The notes beneath the pieces were generated by a model that saw nothing but the letters and a program-made list of their open reading frames with translations, had not been told where the DNA came from and did not search any database. The translations under genes were made by a program, and so were the position numbers. A stretch of DNA of 64,000 bases from an uncultured Gammaproteobacteria bacterium (GTDB lineage Bacteria > Patescibacteriota > Microgenomatia > Levybacterales > UBA12049), in NCBI GenBank assembly GCA_964553245.1, contig CAZKJM010000001.1, forward strand, positions 145,806 through 209,805. The letters are read 5' to 3'. Shown here piece after piece: positions 21,771 to 63,859 of the stretch (the stretch's first letter is position 1; each line of letters begins with the position of its first letter).

Positions 21771-22469
21771 TTAATAAGTTGTTATATGTATTCTTGCTTG
21801 TTCTAAATTAGAAATATAACCCAAGCTGGTTTTCATTTGAACTTGATATAATTTATTTCCCTGGTCTAGGTTAATATTTTGAGAAAAAAGAAGCTTTTGC
21901 AATCCGCCATCCATTGAAACTTCCGAATACCATACTGGGTGTTTGTCGGTAGCATTATACAACCTTATCCAGACTGTTTGATTTCCGGTTGGAATAAAAA
22001 CAGATGGTTCAAAAACTACAGTTTTTATTTCTCCGTACATTGAGCTATCTACGTATGCCTGAGCACCCGATACGTCAGACCAGTCTTTTGAGGCACCGGC
22101 TCCGGATCCAAGCGGGATAAAAAACTCTTTTGTAGAATTAATTGATGAATTTTTTAAACCAGAAGAAGCTCCTGATGATTCTGAAGATAATTTTTTTAAA
22201 GAAACGGACTCATCAATTTTTTGCAAGCAACTTTTGGGACACTCTTCGCTTGTAGTTTTATTATCCTCAAACTGATTGCTTAAAATATCATTTTTACTAC
22301 TATCCTGAGATATTTTTAAAGCTGTTTCTTTTTTTATTGTGTCTTCTTTTGTAACATTACTTATTTTAATTAAATAGTAATCCAGAACGAATAAATTAAT
22401 TATTATTGCATAAAATACAATTAAAAAAAGATTCTTGTTAAATTTTTGTGTATTAAACCTGTCTCGCAT
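21771..22469 (-). CDS. Hypothetical membrane-anchored Ser-rich protein
   Basis: 232 aa. One N-terminal TM segment, a Ser/Thr-rich low-complexity linker ('SSESSGASSGLKNSSINSTKE', 'GSGAGASKDWSDVSGAQAY') and a C-terminal Tyr/Trp-containing domain. Tightly packed between two GT2 genes. Confidence 0.55.
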   Translation of the reverse strand: MRDRFNTQKFNKNLFLIVFYAIIINLFVLDYYLIKISNVTKEDTIKKETALKISQDSSKNDILSNQFEDNKTTSEECPKSCLQKIDESVSLKKLSSESSGASSGLKNSSINSTKEFFIPLGSGAGASKDWSDVSGAQAYVDSSMYGEIKTVVFEPSVFIPTGNQTVWIRLYNATDKHPVWYSEVSMDGGLQKLLFSQNINLDQGNKLYQVQMKTSLGYISNLEQARIHITTY

Positions 22470-23379: not shown

Positions 23380-24834
23380 TTATTTTTTTAGATTGTTTAT
23401 TATAATTTTTAGGTTTGAGATCAGTTGTTCCTTGGATAAGGTTACCATTGATAAAAAGTATAACATAGCTGCTAATACCGCTGTAAACACTAAGCCAAAT
23501 ATGTTCACTACAGTTATCGAAGATATAAAATAAAGAAAAATACTCATTAGAATTGTAGAAAACAATGGATTTTTAATTGAACCAAAAACATCTACATTAA
23601 TCTGTCTTTTTACTATATAAACAACAATTAATCCGGATGGACCAATTATTGCTGACGCTAAAGCTGCTCCCGAAAACCCATAAACTGCTATTAGCAAAGG
23701 AGTCAATATCCACGTAGCAATTGTCCATCCAATCATTAAATATAACGTTATTTTTATTTTTCCGGTTGCGTTTAAAAAATTTGTTAATGGAGTTGAAACA
23801 GCAGCAAACATGGCATTTAAAGAAAATAATCCGAGTACTAAAAGCGCCGGCTCCCATTTCGTATATTTTGGAATAATATTAATTAAATAAGGCGCCAAAA
23901 TTACCATTCCGGCAAGACAAGGAAAAATAATAAAACAAGCTGCAAAAATTGATTTCTCTACTGCAATTTTTAAATGACCTCTGTCTTCCTGAAGTCTTGA
24001 GAATGAAGGAAAGGTAATCCTAATTACGTTATCCATAATTAGCCGTAACGGTAAAAATGCCCATTTTTGCGCAAAACCTAAATAGCCAACTTGAGCTATG
24101 GGCAAAGCTTTTCCTAAATATACTATTAATAAATCATCTTTTATTAATGCTAAGAGACTATTCAGTTGAAATGGCACGCCAAAAGACAAAAGCTTAGATG
24201 CTGACTTTTTTGAATATCCAAGTCTTATTTTCCACGGAGAAATAATATAAATTGTAATTAAACCCGACAATCCTCTTGCTAAAACCGCGTAAGTAAAAGA
24301 TGATACTCCGTAACCGTTAATCGCGAGAACTACCGCTATTATGTTAAAAAATAAAGTTTCAATAATTTGAGGTATTACCAGTTTTTCAAAATGAAGATTA
24401 CGTTCAAGTATTATTGATGGAATAGTTTTTAAAGATGAAAGGAAAAACGATATAACAAGCGCCTGTAGTAAGAAAAGGCTATCCGAATCAAGATTGTAAA
24501 AGCTTCCGATTTTAGGAGAGAAAATCAGCGCTAACAAAACTAACGTAATTACCAATGCTTGTTGGATCGTAAAGGTTGTTTTTAAATCATCTTCTTCTAT
24601 TTTTTCCTTTTTTTGTATTAAAGCGGCAGCAAGACCAATATCGGAAAAATAAGTAAGAAAAGCTATTATTGCGGAAACGACAAAATATACTCCGAATACT
24701 TGAGGGGATAGAAAAATAGTTAAAAGTAAGTTTGCAATAAAAGTTATTGCTTGCATTATAAAAGTTCTTGAAACCAATGCAAAAATTCCCCTTATTGATC
24801 TTTTTTTAACTGCGGCAATGTCAATTTCTTCCAC
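23380..24834 (-). CDS. Wzx-like oligosaccharide flippase (MOP/PST family)
   Basis: 484 aa, about 12 to 14 TM segments. N-terminal 'KKRSIRGIFALVSRTFIMQAITFIANLLLTIFLSPQVFGVYFVVSAIIAFLTYFSDIGLAAALIQ' is typical of polysaccharide biosynthesis protein/flippases. Confidence 0.75.
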   Translation of the reverse strand: MEEIDIAAVKKRSIRGIFALVSRTFIMQAITFIANLLLTIFLSPQVFGVYFVVSAIIAFLTYFSDIGLAAALIQKKEKIEEDDLKTTFTIQQALVITLVLLALIFSPKIGSFYNLDSDSLFLLQALVISFFLSSLKTIPSIILERNLHFEKLVIPQIIETLFFNIIAVVLAINGYGVSSFTYAVLARGLSGLITIYIISPWKIRLGYSKKSASKLLSFGVPFQLNSLLALIKDDLLIVYLGKALPIAQVGYLGFAQKWAFLPLRLIMDNVIRITFPSFSRLQEDRGHLKIAVEKSIFAACFIIFPCLAGMVILAPYLINIIPKYTKWEPALLVLGLFSLNAMFAAVSTPLTNFLNATGKIKITLYLMIGWTIATWILTPLLIAVYGFSGAALASAIIGPSGLIVVYIVKRQINVDVFGSIKNPLFSTILMSIFLYFISSITVVNIFGLVFTAVLAAMLYFLSMVTLSKEQLISNLKIIINNLKK

Positions 24835-25534
24835 AATTTAAATCCTTCCAAAGAGAAAAGCTTTCTTTTATAGCTCTTATTATTACTCGCAGATTTCCTC
24901 CGCTTTGATCACCATATTTTCTTGGGTAATGAGATACTTCTACTTGATCTATACTTAATCTTGCTTTCCTAGCTTTTGCTAAAATTTCCGTAGTAATCAT
25001 TGCTCCTTCTGATTTGAATGGCATAATTTTTTTTAATGCATCTTTTTTAAATAATTTAAATCCGCAGTCAATATCCTTATAATAAAATCCAAAGAAAAAT
25101 AAATCCCAAATTTTTAATAAAGTCATTAAAAGATGTCTAAAGGGATGATCGTTTCTTTTTTTTCTAAATCCAATAACTATATCAACCTTTCTTATTTTCT
25201 CCAAAAATTTCGGAAGTTCATTAAAATTAAATTGATTATCTCCATCAGTAAAAACAATCAATTTATATTTAGCATTATTAAAACCATCTTTTAAAGAAGC
25301 TCCATATCCTCTGTTTGGCATATGAGAAATTACCTTGAGATTATTGTTTTTACTAGCAAGTTCTTTGGCAATTTTTAAAGTATTATCAGATGATCCATCA
25401 TCTATCATTAAGATCTCCCATCTTTGAACAAATTTATCCGCTACTGGAATGGCATTGTTTACAACTTTTTCCAAATTTTTTTCTTCATTCCAAAAAGGAA
25501 AAAAGATTGATAATTCGGGTACTTTTTTAATCAT
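24821..25534 (-). CDS. GT2 polyprenol-phosphate sugar synthase (DPM1/ArnC-like)
   Basis: 237 aa, 'LSIFFPFWNEEKNL', 'LMIDDGSSDNT', 'NRGYGASLKDGF', 'TDGDNQF'. Confidence 0.75.
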   Translation of the reverse strand: MIKKVPELSIFFPFWNEEKNLEKVVNNAIPVADKFVQRWEILMIDDGSSDNTLKIAKELASKNNNLKVISHMPNRGYGASLKDGFNNAKYKLIVFTDGDNQFNFNELPKFLEKIRKVDIVIGFRKKRNDHPFRHLLMTLLKIWDLFFFGFYYKDIDCGFKLFKKDALKKIMPFKSEGAMITTEILAKARKARLSIDQVEVSHYPRKYGDQSGGNLRVIIRAIKESFSLWKDLNCGRN

Positions 25535-27033
25535 TTATTTTTTTTCTTTCTAGTAAAAATTATACCAAGAACAACTATTAATATACCAGCTAGGGAAATA
25601 CTATTTCCGATTTTTTCTATAGGAGTGTCTATAAACACAAAAATTGGTTTGTTTTTTAATGCTTCTTCTGCATTTTTAGGTTTCTTAACATTTTTAGGGA
25701 GGTATTCATCGGAAATTTTTGAAGTTGTCCACCTTAAACTATAGTCATTAATATAGTCATTCGCTGTTTTATTTAATATTTCTCGTGGATGAAAAAATTT
25801 AAAATTTACCAAAACAATCAAAAGAATTGTTATTAAAAATTCTACAAAAATTATATTTTTATTTTTTATAAATTGTCTCGAAAATACAATAATTGAACCC
25901 CCTAAGAATGCGCTAAAAAATCCAACCATATTTAAATAACGCCATGGGTATTGAAAATATTTCATTGGAGAAATTAACTCCCAAATAATTTTAGATTGAG
26001 AAAGCATCAGGAAAATGGAAAATATTAATCCAGAAAACAAAACTATACACAAATATTTTGTTTTTTTATCAATTTCTTTTCCGAGCATCAAACTAATTAT
26101 TAAAAAAATCATAGAGAAAACAACGATTAAAATGTTTAATTTTCCTAACATAAACGACAATCCATCGCTACATGTTTTTGTAGATCCACCAAAACCCCAA
26201 TAGCTATACCAAAGTTGATCTAAGCATACGAAATGATCTTTGAAATCAGCTCCGCCACCGATTGTTGAAGAAACATTCGTATTGCCCATTTCCAAAATAG
26301 CCGGAAGCCAGTAAAATGCAGAAATTAATATGCTAAGAAAAAATGCAGAAATTAAATAAAACGTATTCTTGTTCTTTTTATGCTTTAAATTTAAGATTCC
26401 TAAAATTATAAGTAAAACTATCAAAAAAGGAGTAATCATCATTGCTGTTAAATTATGAGAAAGAATTACCCCGGAAAATCCGATTACAGAAATAATCACG
26501 TAAATGTATTTATTATTTTTAAATAATTTATAAAATCCAAAAAATGCTAAAGGAATAAAAGCATATGCCCACAGCTCGGAAATTGCTCCTCTGACATAAA
26601 TATTTACAGCATGATATGGAAAAAACACATATAAAAGAGCTGATATTATCCCTCCTTTTTTACCCCAAAATTCCCTGGCCAATAAATACATTGAAAAACT
26701 CGATAATAAAACCCCAAATATAATCATAATTTTTGTTGAAACTAAAGCGTCAAACCCTAATAAAACAAACTTTGCACCAAAATAATATGCAAGCGGCGCA
26801 TAGAAGTTAAAAATTGGATAACCAAGCCCGTAACCAAGGTCAGCTACCCATCTAACTGGAAACATCCCCATTTTGAGCGATTTTGCCATTTCATAAACTC
26901 TTTGCACTTGTGTATCATCGTGCATTGGGAAAAAACCGGAGTGAAAAAAAGACAAAATGCTAAAAGATGATAATAAAATTACCAAAATATATGGAATTAA
27001 TTTTTTGAATAAAGCCATACCTGTATTATACAA
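25531..27033 (-). CDS. Unclassified polytopic membrane protein, GT-C-like (paralog of 27061..28581)
   Basis: 500 aa, about 12 TM segments. First-loop 'SGFFPMHDDTQ...MFPVRWVADLGYGLGYPIFNFYAPL' is paralogous to 'TGFFTTDDGNW...QFPVRFLPRLNNDFGYPVANFLYPL' of the next gene. I cannot place the family by eye. Confidence 0.55.
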   Translation of the reverse strand: MYNTGMALFKKLIPYILVILLSSFSILSFFHSGFFPMHDDTQVQRVYEMAKSLKMGMFPVRWVADLGYGLGYPIFNFYAPLAYYFGAKFVLLGFDALVSTKIMIIFGVLLSSFSMYLLAREFWGKKGGIISALLYVFFPYHAVNIYVRGAISELWAYAFIPLAFFGFYKLFKNNKYIYVIISVIGFSGVILSHNLTAMMITPFLIVLLIILGILNLKHKKNKNTFYLISAFFLSILISAFYWLPAILEMGNTNVSSTIGGGADFKDHFVCLDQLWYSYWGFGGSTKTCSDGLSFMLGKLNILIVVFSMIFLIISLMLGKEIDKKTKYLCIVLFSGLIFSIFLMLSQSKIIWELISPMKYFQYPWRYLNMVGFFSAFLGGSIIVFSRQFIKNKNIIFVEFLITILLIVLVNFKFFHPREILNKTANDYINDYSLRWTTSKISDEYLPKNVKKPKNAEEALKNKPIFVFIDTPIEKIGNSISLAGILIVVLGIIFTRKKKNK

Positions 27034-27060
27034 AGATCAGGTTTAAATTGAAAGAAATTA

Positions 27061-28581
27061 TTATTCGATTTTATATCTGAAAAAGCTAATTAAACATAAA
27101 ATTAGAAGAGAAATTAGCGAAAAAATATCTGCAAACAACCTAATTTGTGTCTCCGTGAAATAAACCTGGACAAAATGGCTTCCTGAATTTAGGTTAAATT
27201 GAATTAATCCACCTTCGTTGTTATGGTTAATCATAGCTTTTTCCCTATTAACCACAACCATCCATCCGGGGTAATAAATGGTATTGATAGAGATCAGTGA
27301 TTTTTCTTTTATATCTGCTGTAAAACTGATCTTGCTCCCTTTATTTATTAAATTTTTAATCTCTCCTTTTCCTTTGATAATTTGAACTTTTTCTAAAGAA
27401 TTAGATATGGGTAATTTATTGACCCAATTAGGAATATATTCATTTTTTACTGTAGTTGTATCTTGATTGGTCGAGTAAAAAGCATCGGGATAATTAGTAA
27501 ATTCTTTTGGATAAATAAAATCTTTTGCTCCAAAAACCAAAAAAACCAAATAAATTCCCAACAGAATTATTTTTTGCTTTCCTTTAATAAGAGATAGTTG
27601 ATAAGCTATCAAAAAAGTTGTAGTTAAAACCAAGATTGAAATAAACCTAAAAGGAAATTGAATATAAGACGAAATAACCTGCCAAATAAAATCGGAGATT
27701 GGAAAAAGTAAAAACAAAACAATTACCGAAGATGCAAAAAATAACCAATAACTTCTATCCTTTATCTTTTTTACAAAAACAAAAGTAAATAGAAATGAGA
27801 TCAAAAACACCAAACCAATTAAATTTAAATCATGGAAATTTATAAAATAATTAGAATAGTCAGAGACCAAAACTCTATCAAAAACCACAAATCTTCTTTC
27901 ATAAATTGCAGGAAACCAAAAAAAACAAGATATCCCTAATCCAAAAATTAAAGATGTTAATATTTTTTTAATTTTCTTTTGGGAGAAATAATAGTAAAAA
28001 ATAATTATTGGAAAAAATAATAATGCCAATGTGTTATGTGATAAAACTAAAGCTGCAATACCAATGGATACAAAAAATAAACTATTTCTTTCTATCTGCC
28101 AAAAAATAAACGGGATAATTGATAATGCCAAAACTTCCCCAACTGATCCTCTTTTATAAACATCCCATAAATGATATGGAAAATATAAATAAACCAAAGA
28201 CCCAATCATAGAGGATAGGTTGTCAAACTTTTTTCTAAGCCACATAAAGGAAAAAAATGCTGAAGAAATTAAGCTTAAGCCAAAAATTATTTTTATTGTA
28301 TTTACAAAACTAAAACCTAATAAGTGGATTGGCACACCGATATACATAAATAACGGATATAAAAAATTAGCAACCGGATAACCAAAGTCATTATTTAATC
28401 TTGGTAAAAATCTAACAGGAAACTGACCATTTTTTAAGGCTTCGTAGAAAGCAGAGAATCTTATTATCATCCAGTTGCCATCATCTGTTGTAAAAAATCC
28501 AGTTTTGAAAAGCGTAAAAAATGAAGGAATAGACAAAATTAAAATTATTATTAAATACTTTATTAATAATTTATCTTTCAT
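27061..28581 (-). CDS. Unclassified polytopic membrane protein, GT-C-like (paralog of 25531..27033)
   Basis: 506 aa. See the paralog entry. It has a C-terminal extracytoplasmic segment and a final TM anchor. Confidence 0.55.
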   Translation of the reverse strand: MKDKLLIKYLIIILILSIPSFFTLFKTGFFTTDDGNWMIIRFSAFYEALKNGQFPVRFLPRLNNDFGYPVANFLYPLFMYIGVPIHLLGFSFVNTIKIIFGLSLISSAFFSFMWLRKKFDNLSSMIGSLVYLYFPYHLWDVYKRGSVGEVLALSIIPFIFWQIERNSLFFVSIGIAALVLSHNTLALLFFPIIIFYYYFSQKKIKKILTSLIFGLGISCFFWFPAIYERRFVVFDRVLVSDYSNYFINFHDLNLIGLVFLISFLFTFVFVKKIKDRSYWLFFASSVIVLFLLFPISDFIWQVISSYIQFPFRFISILVLTTTFLIAYQLSLIKGKQKIILLGIYLVFLVFGAKDFIYPKEFTNYPDAFYSTNQDTTTVKNEYIPNWVNKLPISNSLEKVQIIKGKGEIKNLINKGSKISFTADIKEKSLISINTIYYPGWMVVVNREKAMINHNNEGGLIQFNLNSGSHFVQVYFTETQIRLFADIFSLISLLILCLISFFRYKIE

Positions 28582-34543: not shown

Positions 34544-34617
34544 GCCGCGTTCGTCTAGTGGCCTAGGACGTCACGTTCTCAACGTGAAGATCAGGGGTTC
34601 GACTCCCCTACGCGGTA
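34544..34617 (+). tRNA. tRNA-Glu (anticodon CUC)
   Basis: Hand-folded cloverleaf. Acceptor GCCGCGT/ACGCGGT, D-arm 'TCGTCTAGTGGCCTAGGAC' (classic tRNA-Glu), anticodon stem TCACG/CGTGA with loop TTCTCAA, T-arm AGGGG-TTCGACT-CCCCT, discriminator A. CCA is not encoded. Confidence 0.85.
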
Positions 34618-34756
34618 CACAAAGCCATATTAATTATTACATTAGTCTAAGTATAGATCGACTAAAACCTGTCTTTGATTATCAATCTAAAACGACATTT
34701 TTAAAACAAAATAATTACTTGACAAGGGATTTAATATATTATTTAATGCAGACACT

Positions 34757-35110
34757 ATGTTTAAAAAAGTAATATTATCCCTATTGTTTACAATTTTCAT
34801 ATTATTTTTCGTTTTTGTATCTAAAAAGTCAGTTTTAGCTGGATCTTCTTATCTCTATAACCAAAAAAGTTCTTATGTTCCAACAAGCACATCCTGCGCT
34901 TCACCAAATTGTCCAATGAATTTATGGTATCCAAATGGTTCAAAAATTAATATGATGTGCTACTTGGATAGTCAATGGTATACGGGAAATTATAAAAGCA
35001 ATAGATGGTTTAAGGGATTAGCTTATAAATCCTGGAACTCTCCTGGAACTGTAACTTGGGTACACTCAAGTTATGTCTATTATCAAACATCTGTTCGAAG
35101 ATGTTGGTAA
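34757..35110 (+). CDS. Small secreted Cys/Trp/Tyr-rich protein (hypothetical)
   Basis: 117 aa. N-terminal signal-like segment 'ILSLLFTIFILFFVFVSKKSVLA|GS', then a mature region of about 85 aa with 4 Cys (C-x4-C...C...C) and many W/Y. TTGACA-N17-TTTAAT lies upstream, 9 nt before the ATG. Confidence 0.55.
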   Translation: MFKKVILSLLFTIFILFFVFVSKKSVLAGSSYLYNQKSSYVPTSTSCASPNCPMNLWYPNGSKINMMCYLDSQWYTGNYKSNRWFKGLAYKSWNSPGTVTWVHSSYVYYQTSVRRCW

Positions 35111-60171: not shown

Positions 60172-61758
60172 TTAATTTCCTTTATAATGGACTAATTTAT
60201 ATACCTTAACCACAGACACATCCCAACTGCCGGCAATCTCTGCTCTACCAAATCCCGCGATTTCCCAAAGAGAATTACCTAGGGGCTCACAGGGTACGCT
60301 TTCACAAACTATAAATAATTGCTCTGTAACTGTATTTCTTTGCGGATCATGAGCACTGTCTTGAATTATTACCGGAGGGTGATTCCAGATTGTAAAAAAA
60401 TATCTATAAGCATGGTCTGAATTACCTCCTGTAATTATGGCAAAATTAAATGGTTTTGCGTCTGTTTTAGTCATTATAAAATCGGCTATTGTCTTCATTT
60501 GATTTAATTGCCTGTTTGGCGGATGTCTAAATGGGATTCCATTTAAGTTTAATAGTATTAAAAATACTATTACTAAAGCTGTTATAAATTTAAATATCTT
60601 TTGCTTACTAAGAAAAAATTCTGCTGTAAAACCAATTAGGAAAAATGGCAAAGGAAATAAAAACTGAAAATAGTAGTCATAAATTGGTTTTTTATAAAAA
60701 CCGAAAAAGAATATGCCCAATATTAACCAGGTGTTAATTAAAAGATAGGGCATTAATTTTTCGTCTCTTTTTTTAATTGATTCATACATTCTAAATAAAA
60801 AATAACCAAAACTAATTAGTGATATTAAAAGAATAAATGCTGACCAACCAAATAATATGTTTTTACTGAATGATTCAATTCGCTCCGGAGGAGGAAATCC
60901 CATAACCAGCCTCGCAAAAAGTCTAAAAAAAACGTTACCGATAATTAAAAATAAATTTGAACCACCGCCTACTTCCGGAGAATTAAAAATAAATTTAATT
61001 AAGCTCGCTGTGTTTGGGAAACCATGTCTTGCTTCAAAGGCCAGATAAGGTGAAAAACCTACAAGAAAACCAAAAAAAATCATCAAATAAGGCTTTATTA
61101 CGCTTGAAAATATTTTTTTTTGCTTGTTTTTTAAAGCCCAAGAGATAAAAACATAGACAATAATTATTACTCCAACAAAAACCTCAATATAGTGAAGCTG
61201 CATTAAGATTCCATATAAAATCCCTGTGATAAAAAAGAATAAGGGCTTATTTTTATTAACCCCTTTATATAAAATATAAAGAGTAAGAAGAGTAAAGGGA
61301 GGCATTAGATTTGGATTCCAAGAAGAACGCGAATAAGCAACTACAATCGGAGAAATTGCATATAAAAAACTTGCAATTACGCCCGCTTTTCGACCAAAAA
61401 ATTCTGTTCCAATTTTATAAACTAACCAAACTGTAAATATTCCAAATAATGCAATCATTACTGCGGGACCGGCAGGATTGTAATTAAAAAACCATAAAAA
61501 CGGTGTTATGAAATAATAGTAAATCGGACCCAAAAAAAATCCTCCGACAGATGCTGTAGGACCAAGCAAAGTTAATTTACCATGAAGAATATCGTAAGCT
61601 ACTAAAACATCTCTTCCCTCGTCTCCTAAAAAAGTCATATAGTCAGAAATTCTATATAACCTTAAAAAAGCAGCAAGGGAAAGGATAAAAATAATTACCC
61701 AGTTCTTTAATATTGCGTCCGCCATCCGGCGGATAATTTTAAAAATTTGTTTCTTCAC
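60172..61758 (-). CDS. Putative GT-C fold membrane glycosyltransferase, PMT_2-like (paralog of 2167..3675)
   Basis: 528 aa. 'FLRLYRISDYMTFLGDEGRDVLVAYDILHGKLTLLGPTASVGGFFLGPIYYY'. 13 to 14 TM segments. Confidence 0.65.
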   Translation of the reverse strand: MKKQIFKIIRRMADAILKNWVIIFILSLAAFLRLYRISDYMTFLGDEGRDVLVAYDILHGKLTLLGPTASVGGFFLGPIYYYFITPFLWFFNYNPAGPAVMIALFGIFTVWLVYKIGTEFFGRKAGVIASFLYAISPIVVAYSRSSWNPNLMPPFTLLTLYILYKGVNKNKPLFFFITGILYGILMQLHYIEVFVGVIIIVYVFISWALKNKQKKIFSSVIKPYLMIFFGFLVGFSPYLAFEARHGFPNTASLIKFIFNSPEVGGGSNLFLIIGNVFFRLFARLVMGFPPPERIESFSKNILFGWSAFILLISLISFGYFLFRMYESIKKRDEKLMPYLLINTWLILGIFFFGFYKKPIYDYYFQFLFPLPFFLIGFTAEFFLSKQKIFKFITALVIVFLILLNLNGIPFRHPPNRQLNQMKTIADFIMTKTDAKPFNFAIITGGNSDHAYRYFFTIWNHPPVIIQDSAHDPQRNTVTEQLFIVCESVPCEPLGNSLWEIAGFGRAEIAGSWDVSVVKVYKLVHYKGN

Positions 61759-62894
61759 TTATGAGGTTTTTTTCGCCAGATTACAAATCTATACATAGAA
61801 AAGTTATAAATTAGAAGAACCGCTGTTGCTAATACAAAATAAACATATGGCAGTGGATATTCTCTGCCAAACATTATTTCACCAAGCTGAATTAACCCAG
61901 ACTGAATAATTATTACCCCAATATTAGAACTTGCAAAAAAACCCAACATTTTAATTAAATATGTTTTTCCGTCTTTCGTACCTTCATGTTTGAATGTCCA
62001 AATATTGTTTAAATTGTAATTGGAAAATATTGCGAGCTGAGCGGATAAAAGATTTACAACACCCAAAGGCAAAGTGGTTAAACCAATCAAAATCCTATAC
62101 GCTATTAGTTGAATTAAGAATCCAGTTCCTCCAACAACTAAAAATTTACCAAAAGTTCCATAAATTAATTCCTGTATCCTCACTTTTATTACAAAAATCA
62201 GGGTCTTAATAATAGTTTCTATACCCGGAATTTTAGACTTCCCAAGAGTACGATCCTTAGCATGAAATGGCACTTCGGAAACACTAAATCCATCTTTTAC
62301 AGCATTGTATAAAAATCCGACTTGGAATGTGTATCCTGTAAATTTACCAAGTTTATCCTTTTCTTTTATAAATACTTCCTTTTTAATAGCTCTATATCCC
62401 CCTGTCCAATCATTTATTCCCTTTCTTCCAAAAAGAATTCTTATAAACATATTTCCCCAAACAGATAAAAACTTTCTATGCATTCCCCAATCTTTTGGAA
62501 TTGATCCTCCTTTACTATAACGAGTTCCTATAACAAAATCGTTTCCTTTTACAATCTCTTCTATGAAATCTGAAATTTTTGTAGGATCATGAAAAAAATC
62601 AGCATCCATTTCAAACATAACATCTGCATTCAATTTTTCTATCGCATACGTCATTCCTCTAATATAAGCTGCTCCCAATCCCTCTTTTTTACCTACTATT
62701 AAATCTAAATTCTTGTATTTAGTCATTAATTCCCTAACTATATCTGCTGTTCCATCAGGAGATGTGTCATCTGCTACTAAAATTTTTAATTGATGATCTT
62801 TAATCTTAGGAAAAACGTTTTCTTCTAATATCGTTATTAATCTTTCTATATTTCCTTTTTCGTTATATGTAGGAATAATTATTACTGCATTCAT
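61755..62894 (-). CDS. GT2 polyprenol-phosphate sugar synthase fused to a GtrA-like four-TM domain
   Basis: 379 aa. 'VIIIPTYNEKGNI', 'LVADDTSPDGT', 'GLGAAYIRG', 'EMDADFFHDP'. The C-terminal 'GKFLVVGGTGFLIQLIAYRIL...' matches GtrA. Confidence 0.8.
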   Translation of the reverse strand: MNAVIIIPTYNEKGNIERLITILEENVFPKIKDHQLKILVADDTSPDGTADIVRELMTKYKNLDLIVGKKEGLGAAYIRGMTYAIEKLNADVMFEMDADFFHDPTKISDFIEEIVKGNDFVIGTRYSKGGSIPKDWGMHRKFLSVWGNMFIRILFGRKGINDWTGGYRAIKKEVFIKEKDKLGKFTGYTFQVGFLYNAVKDGFSVSEVPFHAKDRTLGKSKIPGIETIIKTLIFVIKVRIQELIYGTFGKFLVVGGTGFLIQLIAYRILIGLTTLPLGVVNLLSAQLAIFSNYNLNNIWTFKHEGTKDGKTYLIKMLGFFASSNIGVIIIQSGLIQLGEIMFGREYPLPYVYFVLATAVLLIYNFSMYRFVIWRKKPHK

Positions 62895-63859
62895 TAAACT
62901 AATTCTCCCTTAAAATATTCTACAGTCTTTTTGATTCCTTCTTCAATACTTATTTTCGGCTCCCAGTTTAATATTTTTTTTGCTCTTGAAATATCCGGTT
63001 TCCTTAAAAAAGGATCGTCTTCAGGCATATTTTCAAATATGATTTCAGAAGACGAATCGGTAATTTTTTTAACGATCTCTGCTAAGTCGAAAATGCTTCT
63101 CTCATCGGGATTACCTAAATTTATTACCTTACCTATGGCTTCTTTAGAAAATATTGCACTATTTAATCCATTAATCATATCGTCTATATAACAAAAACTT
63201 CTGGTTTGCTTTCCTTCTCCATATACAGTAATTGGTTCATTTCTAATTGCCTGATTAATGAAATTAGAAACAACTCTACCGTCGTCTTTTTGCATAAATG
63301 GACCGTAAGTATTAAATATTCTGATAATTCTTACTCTTAAATTAAATTTTCTGTAGTAGGTCATTACCATCGCCTCACCGAATCTTTTTCCCTCGTCGTA
63401 AACAGACCTTATTCCGTTTGGGTTAACATTTCCAAAATAATCTTCGTTCTGAGGACTAACTGTAGGATTTCCATAAACTTCCGATGTAGAAGTATAAAGA
63501 TATTCTGCATTCATTTTTTTTGCAATCTCTAATAAATTATATTGACCAAATGAATTAGCTAGCAGCGTTTCCATAGGGTAATTAATGTAGCTCTTTGGAC
63601 TTTTTTTATTTGGAGAGGCAGGCGAAGCAAGGTTAAAAATATGCGTAACATTTTTTATTTCTTTCTCTATTTCCCGAAGAGATTTTGAAACATCGTGCTT
63701 AATAAATTTAAAATTTGGATTATTAATTAACAACTTTATGTTTTTATCATCGCCTGTTATTAAATTATCCAAGCAAATAATTTTATTTTCTTTAATTAGT
63801 TCTTTACAGAGGTGGGAGCCAATAAAACCTGCTCCTCCGGCAACAAGAATGGTGTGCAT
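62894..63859 (-). CDS. UDP-glucuronate decarboxylase (UDP-xylose synthase)-like SDR, ArnA-decarboxylase-related
   Basis: 321 aa. Rossmann 'ILVAGGAGFIGSHLC', catalytic 'YDEGKRFGEAM' (the UXS-type YxxxK context), 'NTYGPFM'. Confidence 0.7.
   Translation of the reverse strand: MHTILVAGGAGFIGSHLCKELIKENKIICLDNLITGDDKNIKLLINNPNFKFIKHDVSKSLREIEKEIKNVTHIFNLASPASPNKKSPKSYINYPMETLLANSFGQYNLLEIAKKMNAEYLYTSTSEVYGNPTVSPQNEDYFGNVNPNGIRSVYDEGKRFGEAMVMTYYRKFNLRVRIIRIFNTYGPFMQKDDGRVVSNFINQAIRNEPITVYGEGKQTRSFCYIDDMINGLNSAIFSKEAIGKVINLGNPDERSIFDLAEIVKKITDSSSEIIFENMPEDDPFLRKPDISRAKKILNWEPKISIEEGIKKTVEYFKGELV

Follow-up and report, generated by a model that had tools for sequence, protein, structure and literature searches.

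Two genes on the minus strand, here called gene A and gene B, together fill positions 25531-28581 of the window, the whole 64,000-nucleotide stretch of DNA that was analyzed (Table 1). The open reading frame of gene A can be extended to a TTG at 27033 (25531-27033, 500 aa). Its database twin, P0001, is a 495-aa protein, which places the start at the ATG at 27018. Both proteins contain approximately a dozen transmembrane (TM) segments by a crude hydropathy count, which is too noisy to give an exact number of helices.

Table 1. Features of the A/B locus, in window coordinates.
Feature	Coordinates	Strand	Basis
Wzx-type flippase (Polysacc_synt_3), 484 aa, second gene downstream of A	23380..24834	minus	Pfam, synteny
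GT2, 237 aa, no TM segment, polyprenyl-phosphate sugar synthase type	24821..25534	minus	similarity, synteny
Gene A, PF10131 (PTPS_related) GT-C protein, short form, 495 aa	25531..27018	minus	Pfam, AlphaFold2, Foldseek
A H33-D34-D35 codons (H38-D39-D40 in the 500-aa ORF)	26914..26922	minus	translation, conservation
Gene B, divergent PF10131/YfhO-like GT-C paralog, 506 aa	27061..28581	minus	BLASTP, AlphaFold2, Foldseek, orthologs
B extracytoplasmic beta-sandwich, residues 399-475, ahead of the last TM helix	27157..27387	minus	YfhO profile, model
B D33-D34 codons, both invariant in the B family	28480..28485	minus	translation, conservation
YfhO-family GT-C gene, 791 aa	28571..30946	minus	Pfam

An adjacent paralogous pair and its conserved neighborhood

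A and B share 28% identity over 432 columns by BLASTP (E = 4e-37), and profile-profile comparison by hhalign aligns them with a probability of 100% (E = 1e-93). Their relationship as adjacent paralogs, proposed in an earlier note made from this sequence, is thus far beyond chance. Every motif quoted in that note was located in the two translations: A carries GFFPMHDD, FPVRW and GYPIFNFYAPL where B has GFFTTDD, FPVRF and GYPVANFLYPL, with one residue rather than two separating GFFT from DD in B, and FPYH occurs in both.

The pair had also been described as lying between a DPM1-like synthase and a YfhO gene, and this agrees with the GT2 and YfhO-family genes listed in Table 1. The genes are tightly packed, with 11 nt shared between the end of the YfhO gene and the start of B, and the stop codon of A overlapping the start ATG of the GT2 gene as ATGA. 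The solved proteins nearest to the GT2 are ArnC (5e-18), DPMS (5mlz) and GtrB (5ekp). Co-occurrence with DPM1-like genes, suggested earlier as a check, was borne out: in 73 of 75 loci the gene immediately downstream of the A ortholog encodes a GT2. A Wzx-type flippase gene follows the GT2 in all 69 of 69 loci. Immediately upstream of the A ortholog, 55 of 68 loci have a PF10131 paralog and the remaining 13 have none. Across 81 Levybacteria-type genomes the order of B-like paralog, A, GT2 of ~240 residues and Wzx-type flippase is conserved, and GT-C, GT2 and flippase are encoded together in the window and in at least 69 other genomes.

One database sequence, P0241, is a continuous 1116-aa B-A fusion ORF on a 76-kb contig. 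A gene-calling artefact was rejected as its origin because the ORF is continuous in its contig, while an assembly error is possible. P0242 is a second two-copy ORF. Later in the cluster of the window there are several further GT2 genes and one GT4 gene. Pfam scans of window ORFs of at least 120 aa, a few short ones excepted, returned no priming phosphoglycosyltransferase family, and no GtrA-type small flippase was found near the A/B pair. The window's only GtrA domain forms part of a GT2 fusion protein encoded at 61755-62894, in a separate module.

Family membership and predicted fold

The earlier note regarded A and B as unclassified and as a possible new GT-C family, a view that must be set aside. 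A matches PF10131 (PTPS_related) with 35.6 bits (E = 5e-9), above the Pfam gathering score of 26.4 bits, and PF10131 has already been placed in the GT-C clan CL0111 as a family of unknown function (PMC7801869). B scores 15.2 bits against the same profile and lies below every Pfam cut-off. The matches are confined to roughly the first 300 positions of the profile, which has 621. Among B-family orthologs, 17 of 31 match PF10131 at E ≤ 1e-3 (best, 1.9e-13), and most A orthologs have precomputed PF10131 matches. Some orthologs are named "6-pyruvoyl-tetrahydropterin synthase-related protein" or "YfhO family protein" by NCBI. A belongs, and B very probably belongs, to an already catalogued polytopic GT-C family, and they do not represent a new kind of enzyme. 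The family is very large, with 8,100 clusters at 50% identity (E ≤ 1e-30), and its Levybacteria proteins are short, at about 500-580 aa.

Against YfhO (PF09586, gathering score 28.5 bits), A scores 27.3 bits and B 18.8 bits, the latter in the C-terminal domain only, so that both fall short of the gathering score; hhalign gives probabilities of 98.2% for A and 99.6% for B. Judged from these profiles, A and B are homologous to YfhO yet a separate family. They share its membrane core, but they are approximately 300 residues shorter than the YfhO proteins of the window (756-791 aa) and have neither the large extracytoplasmic region nor the long insertion in the first loop. Against PMT_2, A reaches 23.3 bits (gathering score 26.1) and B has no match in the Pfam scan. 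By hhalign, A aligns with PMT_2 over its first ~200 residues at 98.1%, and no profile comparison of A or B with YfhO or PMT_2 falls below 97.7%. The Pfam scan found no STT3 domain (PF02516) in either protein, NCBIfam has no family for A or B, the only STT3 match there having an E value of 0.57, and sequence searches of the PDB with A and B returned nothing meaningful.

AlphaFold2 models of both proteins were of high quality (pLDDT 89.3 for A and 93.2 for B; pTM 0.92 for each). The GT-C class of glycosyltransferases includes STT3, ArnT, PMT and Aft enzymes. When the models were compared with the PDB by Foldseek, A had 18 and B 13 matches at E ≤ 1e-3, all of them GT-C enzymes, including STT3, PglB, AglB, AftA, AftD and ArnT; Pmt4 was also among the structural matches. 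TM-scores normalized to the query were 0.39-0.54, that is, only about 0.5. The best matches were the oligosaccharyltransferases STT3, PglB and AglB and not monosaccharide transferases. No confident homology to a transporter emerged, with such matches having a probability of ~0.16 or less and TM-scores below 0.2. A predicted GT-C fold for A and B, as the earlier note had proposed from the polytopic architecture, is well supported by these models.

Invariant residues and the C-terminal beta-sandwich

The first-loop DD motif on which the earlier note relied is conserved in part. A single Asp is invariant across homologs, corresponding to D34 of A in 495-aa numbering (D39 in the 500-aa ORF) and D34 of B, and was present in each of 65 sequences and each of 142 diverse representatives. 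In the A family the invariant Asp is preceded by His and followed by Asp (27) or Asn (7), and in the B family the preceding residue, D33, is itself invariant. The conserved Asp is located 8-10 residues past the first helix in both models. In A, D34 and D35 line up with the D and E of the catalytic DE motif in the PMT_2 paralogs of the window, and D34 is the presumed catalytic residue of A. Other invariant or nearly invariant residues are R40, PVR56, GYP68, K96, R143-G144, E148, H188, QxPxR360 and E438. Since all of these are retained in both families, neither A nor B looks inactive.

The two proteins differ at their C-termini. B has an extracytoplasmic beta-sandwich of eight strands (pLDDT above 90 in the AlphaFold2 model) that corresponds to positions 756-828 of the YfhO Pfam profile, at its C-terminal end. 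This domain is missing from A, which has lost ~70 aa relative to long orthologs and ends ~80 residues past the TM core; no sizeable soluble C-terminal domain is found in A or B. A beta-sandwich of their own is retained in 55 of 81 A orthologs, and among A-ortholog loci its loss from A shows no correlation with the presence of B.

A proposed role in glycosylation outside the membrane

We consider it likely that A and B are paralogous PF10131 GT-C glycosyltransferases that use a lipid-linked sugar. The donor, the role of the flippase, the catalytic competence of both proteins and the acceptor are what we infer in the following scheme. The soluble GT2 encoded downstream of A would move a sugar from a nucleotide sugar to polyprenyl phosphate at the cytoplasmic face, and the adjacent Wzx-type protein would flip the resulting lipid-phosphate-sugar across the membrane. 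A and B would then each transfer the sugar to an acceptor outside the membrane, possibly a cell-envelope glycan or protein. For this step they would rely on the invariant Asp, located where the first extracytoplasmic loop begins, and on the invariant Arg, Lys, His and Glu residues. A candidate acceptor is a Ser-rich anchored protein of 232 aa encoded at 21771-22469. Several points speak against the proposal: this GT2 lacks the TM helices of GtrB and ArnC, the module contains no GtrA-type flippase, and the usual cargo of Wzx proteins is diphosphate-linked oligosaccharides. The sub-threshold Pfam scores of B, TM-scores of only about 0.5 and the fact that the best structural matches are oligosaccharyltransferases weigh against it as well.

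Systems of similar composition have been described. CsbB/GtcA/YfhO is a precedent for a GT-A, flippase and GT-C system (PMC8035078). YfhO and GtlB act in lipoteichoic acid glycosylation, and PgfM1 and PgtC2 in O-glycosylation of Ser/Thr-rich regions; like A and B, the YfhO family has a GT-A polyprenyl-phosphate sugar synthase as its partner (PMC8035078, PMC12041528). The side-chain glycosylation system of S. pyogenes, with GacI (GT-A), GacK (Wzx-type flippase) and GacL (GT-C) (PMC8035078), resembles the window module in layout, as a GT-C protein is encoded along with a small GT-A synthase and a flippase, which in both is of the Wzx rather than the GtrA type. The window module differs in having two GT-C paralogs instead of one and no recognized GacJ-like helper. 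In Haloferax volcanii, the GT2 AglD loads dolichol phosphate, the Wzx-like AglR is involved in translocation and, on the outer side of the membrane, the polytopic AglS attaches the sugar (PMC3871713). The logic of the components is alike, but this archaeal pathway is a finishing step in N-glycan assembly. The likeness to PMT_2 enzymes of the GT39-GT83 type (PMT, ArnT) is confined to the N-terminal module, which is the only part that aligns.

Given that oligosaccharyltransferases head the Foldseek results, that a Wzx-type flippase gene is always found two genes downstream of A, and that the cluster holds additional GT2 genes and a GT4 gene, A and/or B could instead be an en-bloc oligosaccharyltransferase, ligase or polymerase, with a diphosphate-linked oligosaccharide built by cytoplasmic GT2/GT4 enzymes and flipped by Wzx as its substrate. 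We regard this as unlikely. Such a protein would be at odds with the absence of a soluble C-terminal catalytic domain, B having only its small beta-sandwich, and with the lack of STT3 Pfam matches in A and B and of a priming phosphoglycosyltransferase among the scanned window ORFs. A is most tightly coupled to a GT2 of the polyprenyl-phosphate synthase type, and GacK and AglR provide precedent for Wzx-type flipping of monophosphate-linked sugars (PMC8035078, PMC3871713). A reading in which A and B have no glycosyltransferase role and serve as polytopic transporters or as structural proteins of the membrane is already disfavored and seems very improbable. In its favor, we found no experimentally characterized member in the PF10131/PTPS_related literature, which yielded only the clan listing and an unrelated transcriptome paper. 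Literature searches on GT-C proteins together with Patescibacteria or with DUF2079 returned nothing. Against this reading stand the confident structural matches, all to GT-C enzymes, the profile homology to YfhO and PMT_2, and the alignment of the invariant Asp with the DE motif.

A and B may alternatively be subunits of one obligate heteromer, comparable to Pmt1-Pmt2 or EmbA-EmbB, in which B supplies an acceptor-binding beta-sandwich and one subunit is perhaps catalytically silent. The adjacency kept in most loci, the fused P0241 and two-copy P0242 ORFs, and the presence of the beta-sandwich in B but not in the A of this genome are consistent with this arrangement, and it has been speculated in a review that acceptor binding by small GT-C enzymes may require a partner (PMC8035078). 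It nevertheless appears doubtful: the invariant residues are fully kept in both families, 13 loci have no PF10131 paralog directly upstream, most A orthologs have a beta-sandwich of their own, and its loss from A does not follow the presence of B. A more specific form of this idea, which we think improbable as well, would make B and A an obligate heterodimer particular to Levybacteria-type Patescibacteria, with a docked soluble GT2 and a Wzx-type flippase for monophosphate-linked sugars, building an essential envelope glycan or glycoprotein of these wall-reduced episymbionts. This, if true, would be the first function assigned to PF10131 and would show catalysis and acceptor binding to be split between two subunits.

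For the preferred reading, in which A and B are each lipid-linked sugar-dependent transferases, the conserved gene order (B-like paralog, A, GT2, Wzx-type flippase) and the invariant residues define a construct with which PF10131 could first be assigned a biochemical function. The family lies at the center of a strongly conserved glycosylation supercluster in Levybacteria-type genomes. With this conservation and the 14 GT-C genes found within 34 kb of the window, these bacteria, whose genomes are small, probably invest heavily in envelope glycosylation.

Family assignment of the paralogous pair

An earlier note had described two adjacent genes at 25531-28581, here called A and B, as unclassified paralogs with a first-loop DD motif and as a possible new GT-C family. 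The paralogy is borne out, as A and B share 28% identity over 432 columns by BLASTP (E 4e-37) and their ortholog-built profiles align at a probability of 100% (E 1e-93) in profile-profile comparison. All of the motifs quoted for the pair were found in both proteins, with the spacing from GFFT to DD in B being one residue rather than two. The A ORF opens with a TTG start, and the identical database protein P0001 begins five codons inside it, at the ATG at 27018; residue numbers of A follow the resulting 495-aa form. The genes are closely packed: the end of the upstream YfhO gene extends 11 nt into B, 42 nt separate B from A, and the stop codon of A and the ATG start of a 237-aa GT2 gene share an ATGA junction. 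The G+C content of the window is ~29%, and close homologs of A and B are all from Patescibacteria, mostly Candidatus Levybacteria (Levyibacteriota).

A scores 35.6 bits against Pfam PF10131 (PTPS_related), above the gathering score of 26.4, with sub-threshold matches to YfhO (27.3 against 28.5) and PMT_2 (23.3 against 26.1). B is under every Pfam cut-off (PF10131, 15.2 bits; YfhO, 18.8 bits, in the C-terminal domain only); PF10131 is matched by 17/31 B-family orthologs (best E 1.9e-13) and YfhO by 14/31. Orthologs already carry the names "6-pyruvoyl-tetrahydropterin synthase-related protein", "YfhO family protein" and "glycosyltransferase family 39 protein", and a joint profile of both subfamilies, run against 1.84 billion cluster representatives, recovered 8,100 proteins at E <= 1e-30 and 21,887 at E <= 1e-3. 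Since PF10131, a family of unknown function, is already a member of the Pfam GT-C clan CL0111 (PMC7801869), this match, the existing names and the 8,100-protein family show the pair to be neither unclassified nor the founders of a new family. By hhalign, A and B appear roughly equidistant from the other GT-C families of the window, YfhO (98.2%, E 4e-14 for A; 99.6%, E 1e-24 for B) and PMT_2 (98.1%, E 8e-14 for A; 97.7%, E 2e-12 for B). No characterised member of PF10131 was found in the literature, and the modest significance of the pair rests on this.

Predicted fold and invariant residues

AlphaFold2 models built from a 65-sequence alignment had a pLDDT of 89.3 for A and 93.2 for B, each with a pTM of 0.92. 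Sequence searches of the PDB with A and B gave no match. Foldseek matches to the PDB at E <= 1e-3 were exclusively GT-C enzymes, including yeast and human STT3, PglB, AglB, AftA, AftD and ArnT, in support of the GT-C reading. DPY19, Pmt4, Emb, AftB and ALG12 followed at weaker E-values, and query-normalised TM-scores to the GT-C enzymes were 0.39-0.54. Transporters first appeared at E > 0.03 with a probability of ~0.16 or less, and a non-glycosyltransferase function has essentially no support.

A single first-loop Asp (D34 of A, D34 of B) is invariant in the 65-sequence alignment, within the motif H-D-[D27/N7]-T-Q in the A family and D-D-G-N-W-M, with both Asp invariant, in the B family. Among 144 single-domain representatives of <50% pairwise identity, none of the 142 that span this column lacks it; it is preceded by His (114) or Asp (28) and followed mostly by Asp (76), Asn (34) or Glu (16). 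In the models this Asp lies 8-10 residues past the first helix, directly before a short helix. In PMT and ArnT-type enzymes, D-E is the catalytic first-loop motif, and D34-D35 of A fall on the D-E of "PIFTDEA" in the PMT_2 paralogs of the window by profile alignment. Also invariant in both subfamilies are R40, P54-V55-R56, G66-Y67-P68, K96, R143-G144, E148, H188, P239, W346, Q356-x-P358-x-R360 and E438. Neither paralog looks like a dead copy, as both retain all of these residues.

Residues 399-475 of B are modeled as an eight-stranded beta-sandwich followed by the last transmembrane helix, the stretch that matches YfhO profile positions 756-828. This sandwich is kept in 55/81 A-family orthologs (550-610 aa); the A protein of the window belongs to the short lineage (26/81), in which ~70 residues are cleanly deleted.

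Gene order and proposed pathway

Gene order was examined at 80 loci from species-representative genomes, with ORFs classified against the proteins of the window; one extra genome brought the loci with an A ortholog to 81. A ~240-aa GT2 gene lies directly downstream of A in 73/75 loci with enough sequence, usually overlapping the A stop, and a Wzx gene comes next in 69/69. A PF10131 paralog is directly upstream of A in 55/68; these paralogs comprise genuine B orthologs and more divergent B-like copies. The GT2 is of the window's type in 49/73 loci and of a different type in 24/73 (L009, L011, L013, L015, L017 and others), the latter with 24-31% identity to its best window match, a 256-aa GT2. 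This variation suggests that the donor sugar differs among lineages. Many cluster-bearing records (L004, L006, L013 and L014 among them) bear the title "uncultured Gammaproteobacteria bacterium", which looks like a placeholder or a mislabel and not the real taxonomy.

Among solved proteins, the 237-aa GT2 is closest to ArnC (E 5e-18), Pyrococcus dolichol-phosphate mannose synthase (5mlz) and GtrB (5ekp), whose membrane helices it lacks; its best partial NCBIfam matches are ArnC, PgfS, AglJ and dolichyl-phosphate hexose transferase. [quoted passage not shown] Because the GT2, Wzx and A/B layout fits such systems, and Wzx-type flippases have precedents in GacK of S. pyogenes GacI/J/K/L (PMC8035078) and AglR of Haloferax (PMC3871713), we consider it likely that A and B act as extracytoplasmic transferases, with the GT2 as synthase of the lipid-phosphate-sugar donor and Wzx as its flippase. 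This layout and the ArnC/GtrB-like GT2 give contextual support to the lipid-phosphate-sugar dependence proposed previously. The acceptor could plausibly be a glycan or a protein, since YfhO-type relatives glycosylate lipoteichoic acid (PMC8035078) or disordered, Ser/Thr-rich stretches in membrane proteins (PMC12041528).

The top structural matches and the presence of Wzx would also suit en-bloc transfer of an oligosaccharide by A and B. However, both proteins lack an oligosaccharyltransferase-type soluble domain, families of priming phosphoglycosyltransferases are absent from the window ORFs scanned, and A is tightly coupled to a GT2 of the monophosphate-synthase type. An obligate A-B heteromer would be consistent with gene adjacency, with the sandwich missing from A, and with P0241, a database protein from a high-GC relative in which B and then A are fused in a continuous 1116-aa ORF. 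Against this, both proteins retain all invariant residues, and sandwich loss in A is uncorrelated with the presence of B. P0241 lies on a 76-kb contig with PMT_2 genes upstream and Wzx and GT2 downstream, and is the sole multi-copy ORF checked at the DNA level (locus L084, 6001-9351). Other multi-copy PF10131 ORFs are P0245 (3329 aa, 5 matched stretches), P0254 (1670 aa, 4) and P0242 (1093 aa, 2).

The surrounding glycosylation cluster

Features of the cluster and of a second module in the window
Feature	Position	Strand	Content
Block, GT-C genes	2167-36626	minus	14: seven PMT_2, three YfhO, A and B (PF10131), one MptA/B-like, one DUF2079
Block, other genes	2167-36626	minus	seven GT2, one GT4, one methyltransferase, one Wzx-type flippase (Polysacc_synt_3)
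232-aa protein	21771-22469	minus	no Pfam match; among GT2 genes
A ORF	25531-27033	minus	500 aa from TTG start
B ORF	27061-28581	minus	506 aa
tRNA-Glu (CTC)	34544-34618	plus
117-aa ORF	34757-35110	plus	Cys-rich; N-terminal hydrophobic segment
Second module	60172-63859	minus	NAD-dependent epimerase/dehydratase; 379-aa GT2 fused to GtrA/DPMS transmembrane domain; PMT_2 GT-C gene

A and B are enclosed in a single-strand block of ~34 kb, an exceptionally dense glycosylation supercluster whose gene order is largely kept across Levybacteria-type genomes. It is broken ahead of the DUF2079 gene by two features on the opposite strand (34544-35110). The second, classical module lies elsewhere in the window. 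By its sequence, the 232-aa protein has a membrane anchor at its N-terminus, followed by a Ser-rich linker (SSESSGASSGLKNSSINS) and then a C-terminal domain, and is a possible glycosylation acceptor; its orthologs occupy the same place in six homologous loci (L030, L034, L042, L047, L065 and L075).
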